A stretch of 40,812 bases of DNA from a virus. Lineage: Duplodnaviria; Heunggongvirae; Uroviricota; Caudoviricetes. The translations under genes were made by a program, and so were the position numbers. This document shows, in pieces, positions 8,703 to 40,812 of the stretch (its first letter is position 1; each line of letters starts with the position of its first letter). The notes under the pieces were generated by a model. That model searched no databases, was not told the DNA's origin, and saw only the letters and a program-made list of their open reading frames with translations. The stretch lies in the IMG/VR virus record IMGVR_UViG_2541047766_000005. One strand, 5' to 3'.

Positions 8703-8906
8703 TCAAATAAGTGGTTTGCTGCCTAATTTCATTTTCTGGCGACCAACACAAGTCACACCCATTTCACTGCGTGGCTTGCTGTAGTAAAGATTGTGCCTGT
8801 CTTTTAACCACATCAGGCTCGGTGGTTCTCGTGTACCCCTACAGCGAGAAATCGGATAAACTCTATTCACCCCTACAGAGAGCAAAAGAGAAACGCCGAT
8901 GAACAA
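8703..8906 (-). pseudogene. Fossil of a lambda-type N gene (only the C-terminal ~28 codons are N-like)
   Basis: ORF ends ...YYSKPRSEMGVTCVGRQKMKLGSKPLI, closely resembling the lambda N C-terminus (...YSKPGERGITCSGRQKIKGKSIPLI); upstream part has no N similarity and overlaps the SieB-like start. Confidence 0.45.
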
Positions 8907-9480
8907 CTCATGGTGGCAGGAACTAATGCATTTTTTCCTGCAAGGAATGACACTTAAACAGTTGATTCATATGCTAATCATCCTGATCATATTGATTATT
9001 GTTATGCCGGTAAGCGTAAAAGAATGGATAAACCTGCATAATCCAGAAATCCTTCCTCATTATTGGATGTATTACATCCTGTTGTTCTGCGTTAGCTATG
9101 TGCTTAACGGTGTAGTTAATTCCGCTTATCACGCTGTGACTGAAAGAATTGAGGTATCCGCTGCTCAGAAGCGCAAATCCAAAGAAGAAAAATATGTGCA
9201 AGATTTGTTTGATTCGTTAACTCTTGGAGAAAGAGCGTATTTGGCATTCGCTGTAGCCGCTAATAACCAGCTACAAACGGAAAAGGGAGCTCATGAATCA
9301 ATTTCATTGCTCAAAAAAGGCCTCCTCGTTCGAAGGCCTCCTGCTGTTGGATATCCTGATACCGACCGTTTTATTATCCCGGAAAGCTATAGACATGAGT
9401 GCTACATTAGGTTTGCCGGGAAGGCAGACAGCCTTATGGATGAACTTATCGCTCAGGATAAGCATGGCAAAAACAAGTAA
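8899..9480 (+). CDS. sieB: SieB-like superinfection exclusion membrane protein
   Basis: 193-aa ORF on the opposite strand inside the early-left operon between ral and N; two N-terminal hydrophobic helices; N-terminus MNNSWW... recalled as SieB-like. Confidence 0.6.
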   Translation: MNNSWWQELMHFFLQGMTLKQLIHMLIILIILIIVMPVSVKEWINLHNPEILPHYWMYYILLFCVSYVLNGVVNSAYHAVTERIEVSAAQKRKSKEEKYVQDLFDSLTLGERAYLAFAVAANNQLQTEKGAHESISLLKKGLLVRRPPAVGYPDTDRFIIPESYRHECYIRFAGKADSLMDELIAQDKHGKNK

Positions 9481-21156: not shown

Positions 21157-22062
21157 TTAACTGATATATCCATGAGCTTTGAGATAATTTTCTGCAATAA
21201 TCATACCTACTGGATTGATGACTAGTGAGTCAAGTTCTGTAAGGGTTGAAATACCAAAAGAGTCGAGAACTAATTTTGTAGCTGGGAATGCTTCATAAAA
21301 TGATGCATCAGATGTAAGAGTGTCATAACCCGTTCTTTTTGATAATAACTCTAAGTAATTGATATTATATATTTTATCTGAGAAAAATACGCCTTTAATT
21401 TCTAATAGCTGCTGATTTAGGCGTTTGAGGGTGAAATGTTCTCCAAGAAATTTTATATAATCTGTTTCATAAACAGCATACATTGACCTATGGATCATGT
21501 AATTTTCTTCCAAGGAAATGTTAGGTAGTGAAAAATGAGTACTTTTTTTCTCTGCAAGTTCTGTGATATTTATACTTCCTACCATCTTATTGATTGAACG
21601 TAAAAAATATACAAATGCCAAAAACTTAATATCATTAGTGGTCAGTCTGGATGTTGTATCTAACGCTTGATCGATCAAAATGCTTTGGTCTTCTTGATCG
21701 TTTTCAATTTTAGTAACTATTAACTCCTTAAGAAGTTCTGATTTTGCATCAAACCCCTTTCTTGCGACCTGAACGACTGCTTGATTGAGGGTGTACTGAA
21801 TATCGGGATCAGCGAGTTTTGCTCTTAGTTTTTCATCAACATCTTTAGATAGTTTTTCTGCAATTTGGTGACCAAATTCTTGAGCCCGTGAGTCGACTAA
21901 AGCGAATGCATCTTCACGAAGCGAAGCCATTTCACTTTTGACCATTAACTGGCAAATAGCCATGACCTCAGTAGTGGTGTTGCCAAAGTAGGCATCACCG
22001 GTAACTTGTATAGCTGAGGAGTTATCACCCACACTTTGACCGGATTTCTCGAATAAGCTCAT
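21157..22062 (-). CDS. Unknown-function 301-aa protein of an AT-rich antisense accessory cassette (candidate defence/exclusion effector)
   Basis: Long ORF in strongly AT-rich DNA, opposite to the late operon, between lysis module and terminase; ATGA overlap with upstream small membrane gene; no P-loop, HEPN or other motif I can recognise. Confidence 0.7.
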   Translation of the reverse strand: MSLFEKSGQSVGDNSSAIQVTGDAYFGNTTTEVMAICQLMVKSEMASLREDAFALVDSRAQEFGHQIAEKLSKDVDEKLRAKLADPDIQYTLNQAVVQVARKGFDAKSELLKELIVTKIENDQEDQSILIDQALDTTSRLTTNDIKFLAFVYFLRSINKMVGSINITELAEKKSTHFSLPNISLEENYMIHRSMYAVYETDYIKFLGEHFTLKRLNQQLLEIKGVFFSDKIYNINYLELLSKRTGYDTLTSDASFYEAFPATKLVLDSFGISTLTELDSLVINPVGMIIAENYLKAHGYIS

Positions 22063-22304
22063 TCTTTGTCCCTTTCATTAATAGTTATGTTGCCACCAAT
22101 TTGTATACCGCTAGAGTTATCGCCGATTGTTTGGCTAACACCTTGCTCTTTAGCTTTGTTGCTTTTTAGATTTGCTAAGGCTGTTAGAAAAACGACCAAA
22201 CTCGCTAATGCTGCTAGCGCTGTGGATAATGTTTGACTGGTTATGGCTTGATAGCCAAAGCCTAAAGCCGAACAAAAAGATACAAATACGATTAATTTTC
22301 TCAC
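22059..22304 (-). CDS. Small membrane protein of the same accessory cassette
   Basis: GTG start at 22304 6 nt after GGAG (track ORF starts at ATG 22361 inside the terS start region); two hydrophobic segments; C-terminal GDNSSGIQIGGN motif echoed at the N-terminus of the 301-aa partner. Confidence 0.6.
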   Translation of the reverse strand: MRKLIVFVSFCSALGFGYQAITSQTLSTALAALASLVVFLTALANLKSNKAKEQGVSQTIGDNSSGIQIGGNITINERDKE

Positions 22305-22325
22305 GAAAATCTCCAGAGATAAAAC

Positions 22326-22853
22326 ATGGCACTTACTGACAAGCAAGAAATGTTCTGTCACGAGTACCTCATCGATTTAAACGCCACGCAAGCGGCTATT
22401 CGTGCGGGGTACAGCGCAAAGACAGCTAACCGTACCGCATCCGAAAACCTGTCAAAACCTGACATCAAGTTAAGAATCGCCGAACTGAAAGCGCAACGCA
22501 ATGATCTTGTTGGTATTAATGCAGAATATGTACTTAATCGCCTTCTTGAAATCGACCAGATGGATGTGCTCGACATTCTTCTGCAAAACGGTGAGTTAAA
22601 GCCCATTAAAGACTGGCCTAAGGTATGGCGCACAACGCTATCAGGAATGGATGTTGTGGAGATGGTATCCGCAGATAGTGCCGCACTTCTGAAGAAAATC
22701 AAATGGCCTGATAAGGTTAAAAACCTCGAACTTCTTGGTAAGCATGTTTCTGTTCAGGCATTTAAAGAACAATCTTCTCACGAGCTAACCGGCAAAGACG
22801 GCGGCGCAATCCAGATAGAAACATCACCGATGAGCACTCTATTCGGAAAATGA
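22326..22853 (+). CDS. Terminase small subunit (Terminase_2-type)
   Basis: 175-aa ORF, N-terminal LTDKQEMFCHEYLIDLNATQAAIRAGYS typical of small terminase subunits; overlaps large subunit start. Confidence 0.8.
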   Translation: MALTDKQEMFCHEYLIDLNATQAAIRAGYSAKTANRTASENLSKPDIKLRIAELKAQRNDLVGINAEYVLNRLLEIDQMDVLDILLQNGELKPIKDWPKVWRTTLSGMDVVEMVSADSAALLKKIKWPDKVKNLELLGKHVSVQAFKEQSSHELTGKDGGAIQIETSPMSTLFGK

Positions 22854-32812: not shown

Positions 32813-34114
32813 ATGGCTACTTGGCAACAAGGAATCAACTCAGGCGGTTTTCTTGCTGGTATCGGTGGGCAAAACTCAAATGCGCCAAAGGCAAGTGATG
32901 TAAGTGAGGCGTTGGCCTATATTCGCCAGAACAACGAAATGGAGCGTTCAGGTCGCAATAACATCGGCCTTCAGGCGTTGCAGGGACTTGGTAGTGTCGC
33001 TCAAACATATCAAGCCGCAAAGCAACAGGAAGCGGATGCTGCATTCCAAAAAGAATATGCGGCAGCCATCCAGTCCGGTGATCGACAGCAGGTTCGAGAT
33101 CTGATGACCAAATATCCTGGTCAATTAGAGAAGATTCAGTCTGGTATGAAGTGGGCAGACGAAGACCAGCGCAATTCTATCGGCACCTTAGCGGCTGGCG
33201 CACGCCTTGCGGCCTCGTCTCCAGAAGCAATGCAATCATGGCTGCAAAACAACGCCAAGGAACTGACTCGCGTCGGTGTTGACCCTAATAACGTTGCTCA
33301 GATGTATCAGCAGAATCCTTCAGGATTTGGTGAGTTTGTTGATCACCTTGGAATGTCAGCGCTTGGTCCTAATGATTATTTCAATGTTCAGGACAAGATG
33401 GCTGGTCGTGAGATTGACCGAGGCAGGCTGGCAGAGACAATCCGCAGCAATCAGGCCGGAGAAGCACTAACAGCTCGAGGTCAGGACATCCAGATACGTG
33501 GACAGAACATCAGCGCACAGAATGCTGCTCTTTCCCGCGAAATACAAAGAGCAGAATTACAAGAAAAGGCTCTGGACAGACAGATAGCCAGAGAAAGCAA
33601 TCAGTTAAAGCTTGAAGAGTTAAAGCAGAAACAGGCAGATGTTCGGCAAAAGGCTGACATAGCCCGCGCGGACAGACAGGCCGCCGCTCAGGGCGCTGTT
33701 GATACGTTCAGCACTGCGCTTGATTCTCTCAACGAGATAGAGCAAAGCCCCGGCCTTTCAAAAGCAGTAGGCATTCGCTCAGCGTTTCCGACAGTTCCTG
33801 GATCCGATGCGGCTAACTTTGAAGCAAGGCTAGATACCTTTAAAGCTCAAACTTTCCTCCCTATGGTGCAGTCCCTGAAGGGGATGGGGGCTCTTTCAGA
33901 TGCTGAGGGTAAAAAATTATCCGATGCGGTTGGTGCTCTAAGTCCCAAAATGAGTGAAAAGGCTTTTCGTGACTCTATCGGAAAGATTCGAAATCAGCTT
34001 GAAAGCAAGTTGAGCACTGTTAAAAAACAGTTTGATTATCAGGAGCCGGTGCAGAATACGCCAGGACAACAATCTCCTGCTGGCAGTAACTTTTCTTCAC
34101 TATGGGGTGATTAA
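32813..34114 (+). CDS. Ejection protein, P22 gp20-like
   Basis: 433-aa ORF in the gp20 position. Confidence 0.65.
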   Translation: MATWQQGINSGGFLAGIGGQNSNAPKASDVSEALAYIRQNNEMERSGRNNIGLQALQGLGSVAQTYQAAKQQEADAAFQKEYAAAIQSGDRQQVRDLMTKYPGQLEKIQSGMKWADEDQRNSIGTLAAGARLAASSPEAMQSWLQNNAKELTRVGVDPNNVAQMYQQNPSGFGEFVDHLGMSALGPNDYFNVQDKMAGREIDRGRLAETIRSNQAGEALTARGQDIQIRGQNISAQNAALSREIQRAELQEKALDRQIARESNQLKLEELKQKQADVRQKADIARADRQAAAQGAVDTFSTALDSLNEIEQSPGLSKAVGIRSAFPTVPGSDAANFEARLDTFKAQTFLPMVQSLKGMGALSDAEGKKLSDAVGALSPKMSEKAFRDSIGKIRNQLESKLSTVKKQFDYQEPVQNTPGQQSPAGSNFSSLWGD

Positions 34115-36111
34115 TGGCTAAAGCATGGAAAGATGTTATCGCCTCTCCACAGTATCAGGCGTTAGCACCAGAACAAAAAGCGCAGGCTCAGGAGCAATAC
34201 TTCAATGAAGTCGTGGCACCGCAAGCCGGAGAAAATGCAGAGCAGGCTAAGCAAGCTTTCTATGCAGCCTATCCATTGTCATCTGTGCAGCCAGTGGAGA
34301 CACAGCAACCAGTAGCACAGCAACAACCACAGCAAAGTAGATTTATGTCTGACCTTGGTGAAGCAGTGAAAGAGACTGGTCGCGGACTGGTGCAGGCTGG
34401 CGTGAACGTGGCAAACATACCTGCATCAATTGCCGATGCTGTAACAAGCGCGGCGGCATGGGCTGGCGGTAAACTCGGCATTGGCGATGGGACATATCAA
34501 CCAGCGCCACGAGTAACAACGCAGGGATTAGAACAGGACTTTGGTCTTCAGCAAGGCGCGCTGACTCCACAAACGACAGAGGGCAGGGTATTTGCTGAGG
34601 CATTGCCTTATCTCACTCCTGCTGGCGTTGAGAGAGCGGCAACACAGGCACCAACACTTGCTGGTCGAATTGCTCAGGGTGCAACTCGCCTTCTCGCAGA
34701 AAACGCAGTCGGAACACTTGCTGCAAATAGTGCGAAAGATGATGCGGAAGCACTCGCCACCGATTTAGGCGTTGGTGTTCTGGCTGGAGGCGCTATTAAC
34801 GCTGCTGGACGTGGATTAGGTGCTGCTTATCGTGGCGTTCGTGGTGCTATCGCACCAGAAGCGCAACAGGCTATCAGATTTGCAGAGCGTGAAGGGGTGC
34901 CTCTTCATACTACTGACCTCTTACAGCCTACTTCCCGCGTCGGAAAAATGGCGCAAACGACAGCAGAAAATATCCCCCTGGCTGGCACAAGCGGAATGAG
35001 AGCAACGCAACAGGAAGCGAGAAGTCAGTTGGTGCAGAGATTTGCTGATAAATTCGGTGAGTATGATCCAGCGGTTATTATTGACAGCCTTAAAGCGAAA
35101 ACATCAGGAATTCGTCGTGCTGCTGGGAACCGTCTTGAGCAGGTTCAGAATGCAATGGCGGGAGTCAACATTCAGCCTGCGCGAGCAATTCAGCAGATTG
35201 ATACTGAGATATCTAATCTGCAGAAGCTTGGTAAGGTTGCTGATAACGAGACGATTTCAAAACTTCAATCATATCGTGATGAGCTTGTTCGCAATGCTGG
35301 TCCTGATGGTCCGGTAAATCTGGATTTGAAACAATTAAGCGATCTGCGCAGCCAGTTCAGAATGGACGTGAAGGGGGAGCGACCAGTGTTACCAAACCGT
35401 TCCGATGCCGCCATTCAGCGCGTTTACAAGGCAATGACCGACGATATCAATAGTGTCATTGGTCAGAATCTTGGCAACGATACTCTCCGGAAATATCAGC
35501 AGGCCAATGCCGTCTACGCTGACGAAGCGGCGAAACTAAAGAATACCAGGCTGAAGAATGTTCTCATGAAAGGCGATCTGACGCCGGAAGTTGTCAACAA
35601 CATGCTATTCAGCAAGAACAAATCGGAAATTAAGACTCTGTATAACTCAGTTGGTCGTGTTGGCAGGGCGCAAATGCGCAATGGCATCATTGGAAAGGCG
35701 ATGGAGAAATCTGGCGGATCCCCTGACCAGTTCCTTCGGCAGCTTAACATCCTGCAAAACCAGACTGGCATCACATTTAAGGGTCAGGACGCTGCTTATC
35801 TGAAAGGATTAAAAAACTACCTGCAATCCACGCAGCAGGCTGCAAAAGCGGCAGTAACAACACCCACAGGGCAGCAAACCATCCCGTTCATTATTGGGTA
35901 TGGTACGGCAATGAACCCGGCGACAACTGGCGCAGCAGTAAGCTACGGACTTCTTACTCGCGCCTATGAGAGCGAGCCATTCAGAAATGCAATGCTCAGA
36001 ATGGCAAACACCCCACGTGGATCAACAGCGTTTGAGAAAGCCATGCAGCAGGCACAAAAGGCAATTAGCGCCATGACTCAGGGTGCTAAGTCTGATGCGT
36101 TGTCAGAATAG
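34114..36111 (+). CDS. Ejection protein, P22 gp16-like
   Basis: 665-aa ORF in the gp16 position. Confidence 0.65.
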   Translation: MAKAWKDVIASPQYQALAPEQKAQAQEQYFNEVVAPQAGENAEQAKQAFYAAYPLSSVQPVETQQPVAQQQPQQSRFMSDLGEAVKETGRGLVQAGVNVANIPASIADAVTSAAAWAGGKLGIGDGTYQPAPRVTTQGLEQDFGLQQGALTPQTTEGRVFAEALPYLTPAGVERAATQAPTLAGRIAQGATRLLAENAVGTLAANSAKDDAEALATDLGVGVLAGGAINAAGRGLGAAYRGVRGAIAPEAQQAIRFAEREGVPLHTTDLLQPTSRVGKMAQTTAENIPLAGTSGMRATQQEARSQLVQRFADKFGEYDPAVIIDSLKAKTSGIRRAAGNRLEQVQNAMAGVNIQPARAIQQIDTEISNLQKLGKVADNETISKLQSYRDELVRNAGPDGPVNLDLKQLSDLRSQFRMDVKGERPVLPNRSDAAIQRVYKAMTDDINSVIGQNLGNDTLRKYQQANAVYADEAAKLKNTRLKNVLMKGDLTPEVVNNMLFSKNKSEIKTLYNSVGRVGRAQMRNGIIGKAMEKSGGSPDQFLRQLNILQNQTGITFKGQDAAYLKGLKNYLQSTQQAAKAAVTTPTGQQTIPFIIGYGTAMNPATTGAAVSYGLLTRAYESEPFRNAMLRMANTPRGSTAFEKAMQQAQKAISAMTQGAKSDALSE

Positions 36112-36275
36112 CTTTGCAAACACCAGGAACGTGCAAAAACCAAATATATAGAGCGCAATATTCAACAGATCTCTTTGCATAGACTCATCTCATAATTAAC
36201 AAATCATAACTGACATTAGTGCAATGCTGGGCAAGTTGCATCTTGTTCGGCATTGCTACGTCCGGAGCAAATTAA

Positions 36276-38039
36276 ATGACAGACATTACAGCCAATGTTG
36301 TGGTAAGCATGCCTTCGCAACTCTTCACTATGGCGCGTTCTTTTAAAGCCGTTGCCAATGGCAAAATTTATATCGGTAAAATTGACACTGACCCGGTAAA
36401 TCCTGAAAACCAGATTCAGGTTTATGTAGAGAACGAAGACGGCTCTCACGTTCCTGTTTCGCAACCAATCATCATTAACGCTGCTGGTTATCCGGTATAT
36501 AACGGACAGATTGCAAAGTTCGTTACCGTACAGGGACATTCAATGGCTGTGTATGACGCATATGGCACACAGCAGTTCTACTATCCAAACATTCTCAAGT
36601 ATGACCCGGACCAGTTCCGGCAGGAGCTAGAGGGAGAGTTTGCAAGCGGGGCATTCCCTGAAACAGTAAAGTATAAGTATGGATTACCATCTGTTGTTGA
36701 TGGTGCTGTCTTCAGGAATGTACAAGAAAAGCTGGATGATTTTGTATTTTTGGAAGACTTTGGTGGCAAAGATGATTCTGGAACAACAGATAATAGCATA
36801 GCCTTTCAGAAGGCATTCGCTTCAGGCGCAAGAAAAATTCACTTGAAAGGTTCTGGCATATATGGAATGAAGACCAGAGACATTGAGCTTCCAGCAAAAT
36901 ATGAAATTATTGGTAACGCAAAAAATCCAGAGATTAAATATCTAGGTTCTGATTCAACCTTCACTATGTTTACCCTTACAGGGTCTGGCCCGGCTGCTAG
37001 TCAGTGGAAACAGGGTGGCATATTCCGAGATGTAGTCATATCATCCGACGTGCTGATTAACTGGATTGTTTGTCGTCATGTCCAGAACTTAGAGTTTGAT
37101 CGGGTGTTTTTCTATAACGCACAAACTACTATGAACAACTACCATTACGTTAACTTCTTCCGGTGCGAACGTTGGGGTAGTCCATTCTTGGGGCGTGCGG
37201 ATTTAAATACTGTGGAGTTCATCAGCGAATCACCTAAGTTTCTTATGTGTTTCAGTTCTAACTCTCCGATTGACGTATGGGATACCGCCGATTTATTTAT
37301 TAGTGAATGCTCAATGTTTGCTGGAGATTTTGCGGTAAGAACACGCACAACACTTGGTGAGATGGGTGGAACAGACCAATTCGCGGGTTATCCGGTTATA
37401 ATTTCAAATAGCGTTTTTGATGCCATCAACGGTACTGCTTTTGATATGGAGAGTCTGGCTTACGCTACCATCAGCGGTAACATTATTAGTGCAGGGAGGA
37501 TAAACAATAGTCGTGGAATTAATATTAAAGGGGCAAGAAATCTAACATTTACGGGAAACACTATCACTTACTGTGGTGAGTTCGGCATGGTATTGGAAAA
37601 TGCTGAACAATGTTCTTTGTCTAATAATATATTCAACGGAAATAAGACTGGTGGGCTATCGTTGGTAAACTGTAAAGAAATATCTGTTATTGGCGGCTCT
37701 ATGGGTACGTCTTATATCAGAGGTGGATACTACGTGCAACCACTTGGGATCACAGACCCCGCCGATAACTGTAACGGCATAACCATCAATGGCGTTTCTT
37801 TCGATAGCGATATGACGACCAAGATTTACCTTAATACATCGGAAGAGCGCAAAAATCGTATTATAGCTTGTCTAGGTGTTAATGATACTCAGACGACTTA
37901 TCAAAACCGTGGATCTACTGCGCAGCGCCCTACAGCACCAGTCAGTGGGCAGATGTATTATGATACAACGCTAGGTCTTCCAATATGGTATAACACAGTA
38001 TCATCTGAATGGAAGAGGGCGGATGGTACAAGTGTATGA
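36276..38039 (+). CDS. Tailspike protein (P22 gp9-like head-binding domain plus distinct receptor-binding domain)
   Basis: 587-aa ORF; first ~110 aa match the P22 tailspike head-binding domain ([11 protein letters not shown]...YDPDQ); the rest diverges, consistent with a different O-antigen specificity. Confidence 0.9.
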
Positions 38040-38043
38040 TAAT

Positions 38044-38068
38044 GCGGGTGCTTAGCACCCGCTTATTT
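38044..38068. terminator. Bidirectional intrinsic terminator between tailspike and gtr operon
   Basis: GCGGGTGC-TTA-GCACCCGC hairpin flanked by T-rich tract, between convergent genes. Confidence 0.7.
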
Positions 38069-38070
38069 AA

Positions 38071-39537
38071 TTAATTGCAGTTGAATGTAATGTTTTTATC
38101 GTAAACAAAAATCTTCTTATCTCCGACGTCAATAACCTTTGATGGATTACCAATCTCTTTAATTGTTATATTTCTCATAACCTCGTCATCTGTAATTATG
38201 AAATTTCCTCCGCGCTCATACCAATAGTTTTTTGACAACCATTTATTGCATGCAAGTATATTCAAACCTCGGTTTACATCAATCGGAGCAATTGATATGT
38301 CTCCATCTATACTTGCTGATGAAGCAAACCAGAAAGATGCATACCCGTTTGTGAGGTTATTCTGCCTTACAGTGTGTTTTATCTGATTTATAATATCATT
38401 AGAATTGTCTTTTTTTTCATGCATATAAATAGAACAAAAGAGAATAAATGTTGTAACAACCCCTAATGCGATGAATTTCCACCCTCTGGAGTTGTTAGAT
38501 CTGCCAATAACAACAGGTGCTAGTATAAAAAATGGAACGATATATCTTATAGTCCATTCATCTATTGGACGGTTACTTGCAAGGTATGCTGGTATCATTA
38601 TAATACAAGCTATACATATAGCCATATTGATCATGGAGGTAAAGAATATTTCCTTTACTGACATTGCAACTAATATAAGAAGTAAAATCATTACAACAAA
38701 ACAAAAAACAGAAATAAGCGCTGTAATATCAGAAGGTGGCTTGCCAAAGAAGAAAGCTCCACTGTATAGGAGGAATCCTTTTACGAATAAGTATAAATTA
38801 TTCAGGATATCATCAAATGCAACAAATGTTGGATCTGGAACGCCTGGCAAAATGTACCAGTTATGAGCTCTTGCGTACATGGTCATAATTTTTGATGCAA
38901 CATATGCAAATATAGTTGCAACTAGTATGATCAGATTTTTTTGGCTTTTGGTTTTTACTATAAAAATCACTGATGATATTGCTACTGGTGCAATAATGAG
39001 TAGCTTTATGATGTCATCACTGAAACAAGCTAGAGCTAACACTAAAATATAAAGAGATAGAGAAATTAACGATCTTGTTTTGGAAAAATTGTCTAACATT
39101 ATGAAGCAAAACAACATGGATACATATGTGCCGACATGTATCACAGGTATTAATACGTTTAATACTGCAAACCCAGAAGGCAGCGCAACGCAAAATGAAA
39201 TGGCCCATAACGATGAAAGCCTTTCTTTTGAAAGATAAAATGTCATCAATGTAACCATTGAATACATAATTGCCGGTATGCAGTATGCTTGGTACTGTCC
39301 GTACCAGAATACCTTTGAAGCAAGCCCGTACCATATTATGTCTGTAAAATAGAATGATACTGTAGAGAGATACCATCCACTAAGCGTCCAATTTCCGTCC
39401 GCAATGTCCTTACCCTCAAGAAGTCCAGAAACAGCATCCGAACTTGGCAAAATCTGTTTTGAAATCGAGGCGTAGAAGAAAGTCAGGAATATAAATCCAA
39501 TGATGTATATGGCTGTTTTTTTTATATTTAAAGTCAT
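38071..39537 (-). CDS. Serotype-specific O-antigen glucosyltransferase (GtrC-type polytopic membrane protein)
   Basis: 488-aa multi-pass membrane ORF, very AT-rich, immediately downstream of gtrB in the gtr operon. Confidence 0.75.
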   Translation of the reverse strand: MTLNIKKTAIYIIGFIFLTFFYASISKQILPSSDAVSGLLEGKDIADGNWTLSGWYLSTVSFYFTDIIWYGLASKVFWYGQYQAYCIPAIMYSMVTLMTFYLSKERLSSLWAISFCVALPSGFAVLNVLIPVIHVGTYVSMLFCFIMLDNFSKTRSLISLSLYILVLALACFSDDIIKLLIIAPVAISSVIFIVKTKSQKNLIILVATIFAYVASKIMTMYARAHNWYILPGVPDPTFVAFDDILNNLYLFVKGFLLYSGAFFFGKPPSDITALISVFCFVVMILLLILVAMSVKEIFFTSMINMAICIACIIMIPAYLASNRPIDEWTIRYIVPFFILAPVVIGRSNNSRGWKFIALGVVTTFILFCSIYMHEKKDNSNDIINQIKHTVRQNNLTNGYASFWFASSASIDGDISIAPIDVNRGLNILACNKWLSKNYWYERGGNFIITDDEVMRNITIKEIGNPSKVIDVGDKKIFVYDKNITFNCN

Positions 39538-39538
39538 T

Positions 39539-40453
39539 TTACTTATCCTTTAGAATGTATCTTGGTCGCTGCTTAACTTCAACATAAATTCTTCCTATAT
39601 ACTCTCCAAGAACTCCTATGCCTATTAACTGAACTCCACCAAGAAACAATATTGATACAATGATAGAAGGGTAACCTGGAACACTATTTCCAAACATCAA
39701 TTTATCAGCAATCATCCATGCTCCATAAAGGAATGATAAGGTTGCCACAAACAGGCCTATATAAGTCCACATGCGCAAAGGGAAAGTAGAAAAGCTAGTG
39801 ATCCCTTCCAGCGCCAAGTTCCATAGCTTCCATCCATTGAACTTTGTGCTTCCTGCAACGCGTTCTGCTCGCGCATATTCTACGACATCGGTTCGACCAC
39901 CAACCCAGCTCAGCACACCCTTCATAAACAGGTTTCGTTCTGGCATGAGCTTAATGTTTTCTACTACTTCGCGAGACATGAGCCGGAAGTCGCCAACATT
40001 CTCTTCTATCTGAGGGTTGCTGATTTTGTTATGAAGTTTATAGAACCACTCAGCAGATTTACGCTTCAGCCTGCTGTCAGTGGAGCGGTCAGAGCGTTTA
40101 GCCAGAACCATATCTGCACCGGCCTGCCATTTCTCTATCAAGTGAGGAATAACTTCTATAGGGTCTTGCAGATCAACGTCAATCGGGATAATTGCCTCCC
40201 CGGTAGCATGGTCCAGACCTGCGAACAGGGCAGGTTCTTTGCCGAAGTTACGTGTGAACGACAGCGAAACCACAAGCGGGTCGGCAACAGCAAGCTCGTT
40301 GATAATTGATTCTGTAGCGTCTTTGCTGCCATCGTTTATGAAGACTATCTCGACTTCATGCTGCTGAAGCCCTTCAAATTCGCGCACGGTTTTATAAAAA
40401 ATAGGTATCGTGGCCTCTTCGTTAAAGACCGGAACGACTAAAGAAATTTTCAT
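39539..40453 (-). CDS. gtrB: Bactoprenol glucosyltransferase GtrB (GT2 family)
   Basis: 304-aa ORF with GT2 N-terminal domain (VVPVFNEE...DGSKD) and two C-terminal transmembrane helices. Confidence 0.9.
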
Positions 40454-40812
40454 TTCGCATCCCTAAAGACAATGAACTTTGAATAGACGAAACCGCACAC
40501 CAGGCTGATGGCGGAGAAGGTGACAAGAGTTATCATCGGAGGAAGTGCGCATCTATCAGCAGCCCATCCAACAGTAGCACTCAGTGTTCCCATGAACCCG
40601 ACATATAACATGTAGCGCATCGTTGTAGTTGATGCTTTGAATGTGAATTTTGCATTCGCGAAGAAGCTAAAACTCACAGCCACAACGAAACCTGCGAAGT
40701 TTGCCAGAGCCTGATTGGTATGCGCGGCATAGATACATACACCAAAAACCACCCAGTGTATAAGTGTGTTCAGCACACCAATCGAGGTGTACCTTGCAAA
40801 TATATTTAACAT
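40450..40812 (-). CDS. gtrA: GtrA flippase (bactoprenol-glucose translocase)
   Basis: 120-aa four-helix membrane ORF matching GtrA of serotype-converting phages; start codon at the last three bases of the window. Confidence 0.88.

Follow-up and report, generated by a model that had tools for sequence, protein, structure and literature searches.

A single O-antigen backbone and a single gene cluster are common to the Escherichia coli serogroups O17, O44, O73, O77 and O106, which are told apart by their glucose side branches: none in O77, one in O17 and O44, and two in O73 and O106 (PMC7685785, PMC10304059). These differences are attributed to prophage gtr genes. Diversification of the group by gtr-bearing prophages at att-lambda was proposed in 2007 and has been solved for O44, whose side branch the literature assigns to a cassette between ybhB and ybhC (PMC10304059 and PMC7685785, citing Wang 2007). 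The O44 determinant is the only one identified so far, the O73 transferases being stated to be unidentified (PMC10304059), and genome-based serotyping lumps the five serogroups together as 'O77g', a group that in silico typing cannot yet split. Tailspike TSP3 of phage CBA120 is reported to cleave the O77 antigen and to be specific for it (PMC10408124), its residues Glu362 and Asp426 are catalytic by mutagenesis (PMC6517402), and CBA120 loses its O77 tropism when the TSP3 receptor domain is swapped (PMC12737597). Here, we describe a prophage of the Caudoviricetes, IMG/VR record IMGVR_UViG_2541047766_000005, whose 40,812 nucleotides are referred to below as the window. At its right end, a gene for a TSP3-type tailspike converges on a gtrA-gtrB-gtrC cassette, and the third gene of the cassette, encoding a protein of 488 amino acids (aa), is a candidate determinant of another O77-group variant.

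Our reading, to which we give a probability of about 0.75, is that gtrABC glucosylates the O-antigen of the lysogen and that the tailspike targets this same O77-type antigen. The layout itself is ordinary for P22-like phages; what is new is GtrC, which is unannotated and lies outside the curated families. Public records label it 'hypothetical protein'. It matched nothing in Pfam (to E 10), NCBIfam or PADLOC, a profile search of PDB sequences returned a chance match only (E 0.81), and PHROGs holds no more of it than C-terminal fragments, with the function given there as unknown. A tblastn search of 50,697 phage records found no match, so that gtrC is known from prophages only. A database search retrieved 23 related clusters, all from Enterobacteriaceae and ranging from 99 to 29% identity.

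The fold of the protein is that of a GT-C glycosyltransferase. An AlphaFold2 model built with 20 relatives as input (predicted local distance difference test score 85.5, predicted template modelling score 0.86) has the multi-helix membrane domain of this architecture, with about 13 helices, followed by a C-terminal alpha/beta domain at residues 395-488. In the alignment of the 20 relatives, the loop that follows the first transmembrane helix holds the near-invariant residues D34 and D44, and H134, S173-D174 and R331 are invariant. D34 and D44 supply the acidic residue in the first extracytoplasmic loop that is a hallmark of GT-C enzymes; the Lys-rich N-terminus suggests that this loop faces the periplasm. 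The donor is probably polyprenyl-phosphate-linked, as the linkage of gtrC to gtrB, whose product makes undecaprenyl phosphate-glucose (Und-P-Glc), would imply.

An earlier note on this DNA, made from the sequence alone, had taken the protein for a serotype-specific Gtr transferase, proposed its comparison with known ones and named membership of a non-Gtr membrane family as a finding that would overturn its interpretation. The comparison favours the Gtr assignment. When the 488-aa protein was aligned by hhalign with seven known GtrC proteins, only GtrI, from Shigella flexneri phage SfI, was clearly related (probability 97.6%, E 3.9e-12, 424 columns), and it keeps D34 (aligned with a GtrI Asp), H134, S173-D174 and R331; no relationship to GtrII, GtrIV, GtrV, epsilon34 GtrC or HF4s GtrC emerged (probability <4%). 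It is also related to the GtrC of O44 strain 042 (32%, E 6e-80). Its relatives at 89, 88, 53, 40 and 32% identity each lie downstream of gtrA-gtrB, and one at 31% identity, from Salmonella Choleraesuis, is located where a contig ends and converges on a P22-like tailspike gene. The GtrII family PF14264 was considered as a home for the protein and rejected, given the hhalign result for GtrII and the lack of any Pfam match even at E 10; the same model does match GtrII and the GtrC of E. coli GF66.2.

The rest of the cassette is of the expected kind, with a GtrA-family first gene, a GT2 second gene overlapping it by 4 bp, and a polytopic, variable third gene. GtrA is 100% identical to that of 042 and 87% to that of SfI, GtrB is 95 and 87% identical to the same two, and GtrC has only the 32% identity to 042 given above, so the third gene differs between cassettes while gtrAB is kept. 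A GT-C fold fixes neither donor nor acceptor, since it is common to ArnT, PglB and protein mannosyltransferases, and no Gtr-specific Pfam model matches the 488-aa protein; it might on that account act on the lipopolysaccharide (LPS) core, enterobacterial common antigen or capsule, or move a sugar other than glucose. We regard this as very improbable, because the gene is always linked to gtrA and gtrB, the Und-P-Glc makers, because GtrI and the O44 GtrC are its homologues, and because it is tightly restricted to hosts with one type of O-antigen backbone.

That restriction is seen at the level of both strain and population. The genome of strain ST3 is 100% identical to the window over the region concerned (36000-40812), and its wzy and wzx are annotated 'O17/O44/O73/O77/O106 family'. 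Among 5426 complete E. coli genomes, 94 have an O77-group wzy or wzx and 25 carry gtrC, the cassette being conserved at 99.3% or more. Of these carriers, at least 22 belong to the O77 group, a count that leaves out PRO_A-1551, JNE25-005 and 2018-05-2CC and in which CNREC_004-43 is placed from its published description (PMC13094856). The nominal hypergeometric P for the association is 3e-37, for genomes that are partly clonal. Beyond E. coli, the cluster with 89% identity to GtrC is named from Salmonella serovars Carrau and Florida, both of them O:6,14, with the same backbone as the O77 type, and a cluster at 30% comes from serovars of serogroup C1. In Salmonella Carrau (L026, 5724-8467), the 89%-identical cassette lies next to proBA, phoE and crl, without phage structural genes, and on a separate short contig (L027), an integrase fragment lies directly beyond gtrC; the Salmonella cassette looks like a fixed remnant at a P22-type attachment region.

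The tailspike points to the same polysaccharide. Among PDB sequences, its head-binding domain matches the N-terminal parts of the tailspikes of P22 and Sf6, and it is followed by a beta-helix match (PF13229). Residues 114-586 are homologous to CBA120 TSP3 (PDB 5W6F, 6NW9; phmmer E 7.6e-223), with 66% identity over 473 residues; the figure is 77-78% for the first 200 of these and drops to about 54% beyond them. Glu362, Asp426, Asp383 and His334 of TSP3 correspond to E318, D382, D339 and H290 here, all of them conserved, and the tailspike is predicted to bind and cut an O77-type backbone. By DNA, the closest matches among phage tailspikes, with 84% identity, come from two Kagunavirus phages. The earlier note had proposed that the O-antigen is both the receptor of the tailspike and the substrate of the cassette; a TSP3-type receptor domain in a prophage whose host has an O77-group cluster bears this out, and receptor and substrate are very probably one polysaccharide.

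Cleavage of the O77 antigen by the tailspike has indirect support from 16 genomes that have the receptor domain, 13 of them with the gene for the 488-aa GtrC, and 10 of those 13 are confirmed O77-group. Receptor domain and cassette are also inherited together. A block running from about codon 149 of the tailspike to part of gtrA is 84% identical to DNA of a Citrobacter freundii prophage and of a related contig from Logan run ERR3712476 (L028 and L029, 6043-9818); there, the receptor domain (about 90% protein identity) sits on a different N-terminal anchor, in a tailspike of 679 aa. The recognition and modification modules thus appear to move together between phage backbones. In M7424 and related Shiga-toxin strains of sequence type 69 (ST69), the cassette is present at 99.3% identity in a myovirus-type prophage that lacks this tailspike. 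The terminator and the final 84 bp of the tailspike open reading frame (ORF) go with the cassette into such myovirus-type att-lambda prophages, and this stretch (window 37956-38120; L006, 6001-6161; L021, 9709-9793), non-coding there, is 95.8% identical in M7424 and 73% in 042; it is a footprint of an earlier tailspike-linked state.

A different pairing is found in E. coli GF66.2 (L005, 1435-7584), where a receptor domain with 93% identity belongs to a P22-like prophage with an immI block (two Arc-family genes and an ant pseudogene) and a GtrII-type GtrC of PF14264. Strains PSS-11 and MB53 likewise combine the same tailspike receptor domain with a different GtrC.

Separately, the tailspike gene has decayed in several carriers. 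An IS3-family insertion sequence (IS) element (ISEc31 or IS3) interrupts it in ESC818, JNE25-001, JNE25-003, JNE25-005, JNE12-007 and G4/9, and it is truncated in 2018-05-2CC; gtrCBA is intact in all seven genomes, with at least 99.3% identity, which suggests that the cassette is kept after phage decay.

These observations bear on how the cassette pays its way. The antigen may be glucosylated without any hindrance to the phage's own tailspike, the value of the cassette lying in escape from other O77-specific phages, antibody and grazing protists, and its place beside the tailspike reflecting only the usual cargo position near attP. The seven genomes with intact gtrCBA beside an IS-interrupted or truncated tailspike fit such an account, as do the M7424-type myovirus prophages that have the cassette (99.3%) without this tailspike, the position of gtr beside attP in the tailspike-free phages SfI, SfII, SfIV and SfV, and the report that the glucose branches of O73 prevent uptake by Acanthamoeba (PMC10304059). 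We nevertheless hold it to be rather unlikely, since receptor domain and gtrCBA form one block in two unrelated backbones, as a functional link would give, and since the polysaccharide that the tailspike targets is very probably the one on which the cassette acts.

Whether the lysogen displays the product depends on expression of the cassette. A scan of the 450 bp upstream of gtrA gave no promoter of the sigma-70 consensus, although the same upstream region serves the O44 cassette and the scan is therefore uninformative rather than negative. The signature of the Salmonella Dam/OxyR switch (four GATC in OxyR half-sites; PMC3688519) is absent, since the 347 bp that precede gtrA contain a single GATC (L001, 10868), so that phase variation of this type is not expected. 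An intact cassette that is silent or conditionally expressed, leaving the lysogen mostly plain O77, would agree with the lack of a promoter-like site and with the observation that some Salmonella gtr operons changed LPS visibly only from a constitutive promoter (PMC3688519). It appears improbable in view of the 95.9% identity, from gtrB and gtrA through the upstream region to attR, with 042, whose O44 phenotype is attributed to its cassette. The three ORFs are, moreover, intact and at least 99.3% conserved in 25 genomes, degraded prophages included, the single GATC is not the set of four of the Dam/OxyR switch, and a cassette-bearing outbreak strain does not react with O77 serum (PMC13094856).

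In the favoured reading, glucosylation of the antigen that the tailspike recognizes, events would run as follows. Residues 1-113 of the tailspike would dock onto the virion, and the beta-helix would bind and cut the O77-type backbone (Man-Man-Man-GlcNAc; mannose and N-acetylglucosamine). Once the phage is integrated, gtrA-gtrB-gtrC would be expressed from the prophage. GtrB would transfer glucose from UDP-glucose onto undecaprenyl phosphate (Und-P) at the cytoplasmic face, GtrA would help Und-P-Glc to reach the periplasmic face, and GtrC, with its GT-C fold, would attach the glucose, in the periplasm, at one defined position of each O77-type repeat. As a result, the O77-group antigen on the lysogen would be glucose-branched and its serology changed, and the branch would probably lower binding or cleavage by TSP3-type tailspikes, the prophage's own included.

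Several points weigh against this. The closest characterized relatives of GtrC are only 32% (O44 GtrC) and about 20% (GtrI) identical to it, so the acceptor position of this predicted glucosyltransferase is not readable from sequence. With 66% identity to TSP3, falling to about 54% distally, the tailspike could be specific for a branched variant instead of plain O77. Some tailspikes tolerate glucose branches, and a barrier to self-adsorption is not guaranteed. The GtrII-type GtrC of GF66.2 means that the pairing of receptor domain and this GtrC is not obligatory, the partial clonality of the genomes tempers the population association, and the promoter scan upstream of gtrA revealed no sigma-70 consensus.

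The cassette is of practical interest since it is present in an untypeable ST69 Shiga-toxin lineage behind outbreaks of haemolytic uraemic syndrome (HUS). The strain of the 2025 French HUS outbreak belongs to ST69, has the O77-group cluster and did not agglutinate with O17, O44, O73, O77 or O106 sera (PMC13094856); outbreak isolate CNREC_004-43 carries gtrC at 99.7% identity. In this lineage (ST69 stx2d O77g:H18), the cassette carriers CNREC_004-43, M7424, M00057 and M11957 have one gtr locus each, as against the two glucose branches of O73 and O106 (PMC10304059). Assignment of gtrC to one of the known serogroups was attempted: the O17 type strain K12a does not have the gene, and O44 strain 042 lacks it and has a different allele. 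Because att-lambda is empty in K12a, with ybhB and ybhC adjacent (L024, 9124-11035), the O17 glucose branch must be encoded elsewhere. An E. coli paralogue with 40% identity (P0017) was absent from the complete genomes. We suggest, tentatively and as one of the less likely outcomes, that GtrC may add a single glucose at a position unused in O17, O44, O73 and O106, giving a sixth O77-group antigen unseen by the current scheme, which would explain the failure of the outbreak strain with all five sera. Against this stands strain C165-02, of the same lineage and historically typed O73, and the failure to agglutinate could also stem from a capsule or from low O-antigen expression.

The gtrC gene is a concrete, unannotated candidate for a further O77-group determinant, standing beside a tailspike whose likely receptor is the unmodified backbone. 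Should the favoured reading hold, the gene would be a typing marker that subdivides 'O77g', it would predict resistance to O77-specific phages or to tailspike reagents such as CBA120 TSP3 and the Kagunavirus tailspikes, and the locus would be a clean natural case of receptor-recognition and receptor-modification modules moving jointly between phage backbones.

The features of the region are listed in Table 1.

Table 1. The tailspike and gtr region at the right end of the prophage (positions in the window)
Feature	Position	Strand	Basis
gp16-type DNA-ejection (DNA transfer) protein; final ejection gene ahead of the tailspike	34114..36111	+	phrog_770 'DNA transfer protein', E 5.8e-237
Non-coding spacer, 164 bp, in place of the P22 immI block	36112..36275	.	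no ORF >=50 aa wholly inside
Tailspike ORF, 587 aa	36276..38039	+	PF09008 then beta-helix
Tailspike N-terminal head-binding (particle-anchor) domain, residues 1-113	36276..36614	+	PF09008 Head_binding, E 2.4e-67
Tailspike receptor-binding/catalytic beta-helix and small C-terminal domain, residues 114-587; predicted O77-backbone glycosidase	36615..38039	+	CBA120 TSP3 homology
Hairpin terminator common to both convergent transcription units	38044..38062	.	GCGGGTGC-TTA-GCACCCGC then TTATTTAATT
gtrC, type-specific GT-C-fold glucosyltransferase (predicted), 488 aa, 34% G+C	38071..39537	-	
gtrB, bactoprenol (Und-P) glucosyltransferase, GT2	39539..40453	-	PF00535 E 2.9e-30; phrog_841 'GtrB-like O-antigen conversion' E 1.9e-166
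gtrA, putative flippase for Und-P-glucose; small membrane protein	40450..40812	-	PF04138 E 2e-13; phrog_2224 E 2.7e-69
Co-inherited block: tailspike receptor domain, terminator, gtrC, gtrB, part of gtrA	36720..40494	.	3.78-kb colinear match, 84% identity

The earlier note had described ejection genes running through a 165-bp spacer straight into the tailspike, with no immI block, and a convergent gtrA-gtrB followed by an AT-rich ORF. The order and the coordinates are correct, and the spacer length needs amending, to 164 bp. Upstream of the gp16-type gene lie P22 gp20-type (PF16928) and gp7-type (PF25688) ejection genes and an Sf6-type needle knob. The absence of immI (sieA, mnt, arc, ant) is upheld: the spacer is too short for sieA, mnt or ant, and the Arc, Arc/Mnt-like and Ant proteins of the GF66.2 prophage, used as tblastn queries, have no match in the entire window. 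Convergence and AT-richness likewise agree with the ORFs, the family scans and the G+C contents, which are 34.4% for gtrC, 44.7% for gtrB, 45.2% for gtrA and 46.9% for the whole window. The stop codons of tailspike and gtrC are 31 bp apart, and the hairpin between them, G+C-rich and followed by a T-rich tail, has a stem of eight pairs, seven of them G-C. The implied novelty of a gtr cassette straight after the tailspike with no immI did not stand: this layout is already present in the isolated phage HF4s, and the order of tailspike, gtrCBA and attP in P22 and epsilon34. The 3′ part of the spacer and the start of the tailspike gene are 73% identical to the matching HF4s spacer.

The window holds the entire prophage, beginning with the host gene ybhC (1-1284) and a lambda-type integrase of 356 aa (1419-2489) with the lambda arm-binding domain PF09003. 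Because the start codon of gtrA sits on the final bases of the window, the upstream region of the operon and attR fall outside it; both were taken from the ST3 genome (L001), identical over this region. About 340 bp past the start of gtrA in ST3 come a lambda-like attP arm, the att-lambda core GCTTTTTTATACTAA and then ybhB, placing the gtr cassette at the prophage end beside the attachment site. The right end of the window belongs to an intact P22-like prophage inserted at att-lambda, with ybhC on one side and ybhB on the other, in O77-group E. coli. By its RefSeq annotation, the P22-like gene set of the ST3 prophage is complete, with int, xis, recT, sieB, cI, cro, cII and genes for replication, nin, Q, lysis and terminase, and, on the virion side, portal, scaffold, coat, gp4, gp10, needle and ejection genes. 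P22-like virion genes are thus combined here with a lambda-type integration module.

Three further observations concern other parts of the prophage. In the attP arm, within the gtrA-ybhB interval (L001, 10960-11170), there is a hairpin resembling the lambda sib/tI terminator (ttagcgcaag...cttgcgctaa). The early region has a SieB superinfection-exclusion gene (window 8899-9480, + strand; PF14163, E 2.2e-22), so the prophage has a second exclusion function, unrelated to the gtr cassette. Between the lysis genes and the small terminase gene, two opposite-strand ORFs (window 21157-22361, - strand), one of 301 aa (RefSeq 'LPO_1073/Vpar_1526 family protein') and one of about 81-100 aa, had no match in Pfam or PADLOC and look like a cargo insertion.

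Set against known systems, the order and orientation of the region, with the tailspike followed by convergent gtrC-gtrB-gtrA and then attP and int, are those of P22 (as the P22-type SPN9CC), epsilon34 and HF4s. HF4s, an isolated E. coli phage, is likewise without immI, and its gene 16 is separated from the tailspike by 155 bp. All three differ in having GtrC proteins of other families (DUF6056 in epsilon34 and HF4s), other tailspike specificities and integrases that are not lambda-type. With TSP3 (ORF212 of the Kuttervirus CBA120), the tailspike shares a homologous receptor and catalytic domain in which the catalytic Glu/Asp pair is kept; the N-terminal anchor, which here is the P22 head-binding domain, is different, and identity drops to about 54% in the distal third.

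For GtrC, the relatives lie elsewhere. SfI GtrI is the sole classical Shigella GtrC related in sequence (BLASTP E 4.6e-5, in the C-terminal domain) and is similarly the third gene behind gtrA-gtrB, beside attP. Identity is only about 20%, and SfI is a myovirus-type phage without a tailspike. The S. flexneri O-antigen backbone is built of rhamnose and GlcNAc, unlike the O77 type. The GtrC proteins of Salmonella serogroup C1 (Paratyphi C, Choleraesuis, Ohio and others) belong to the same family, at 30-33% identity, and the Choleraesuis gene resembles ours in being convergent to a P22-like tailspike; the receptor domain of that tailspike is unrelated, and the O-antigen of the C1 hosts is not the same. 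To judge from strain names and prophage context, these relatives are probably the 'family V' of Davies et al. 2013, which shifted the LPS ladder in S. Infantis (PMC3688519).

The nearest system is the prophage of E. coli 042 (O44:H18), which occupies the same att-lambda site (ybhC/ybhB) with a lambda-type integration module, in a strain with an O77-group cluster. The two loci have 95.9% DNA identity from the end of gtrB through attR, and the 042 GtrC ('WbbG', 491 aa) is of the same family over its full length (32% identity, E 6e-80 over 480 residues). Its carrier is a myovirus-type prophage with tail fibres, whereas ours is a P22-like podovirus with a tailspike, and the DNA homology ends exactly at the gtrB/gtrC junction. 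Given this break and the low identity, an acceptor position or linkage other than that of 042 is expected. With gtrAB and attR shared, GtrC divergent and the 042 cassette credited with the O44 branch, the GtrC of the window is, on the sequence evidence, an allelic-type replacement of a known O77-group side-branch glucosyltransferase.

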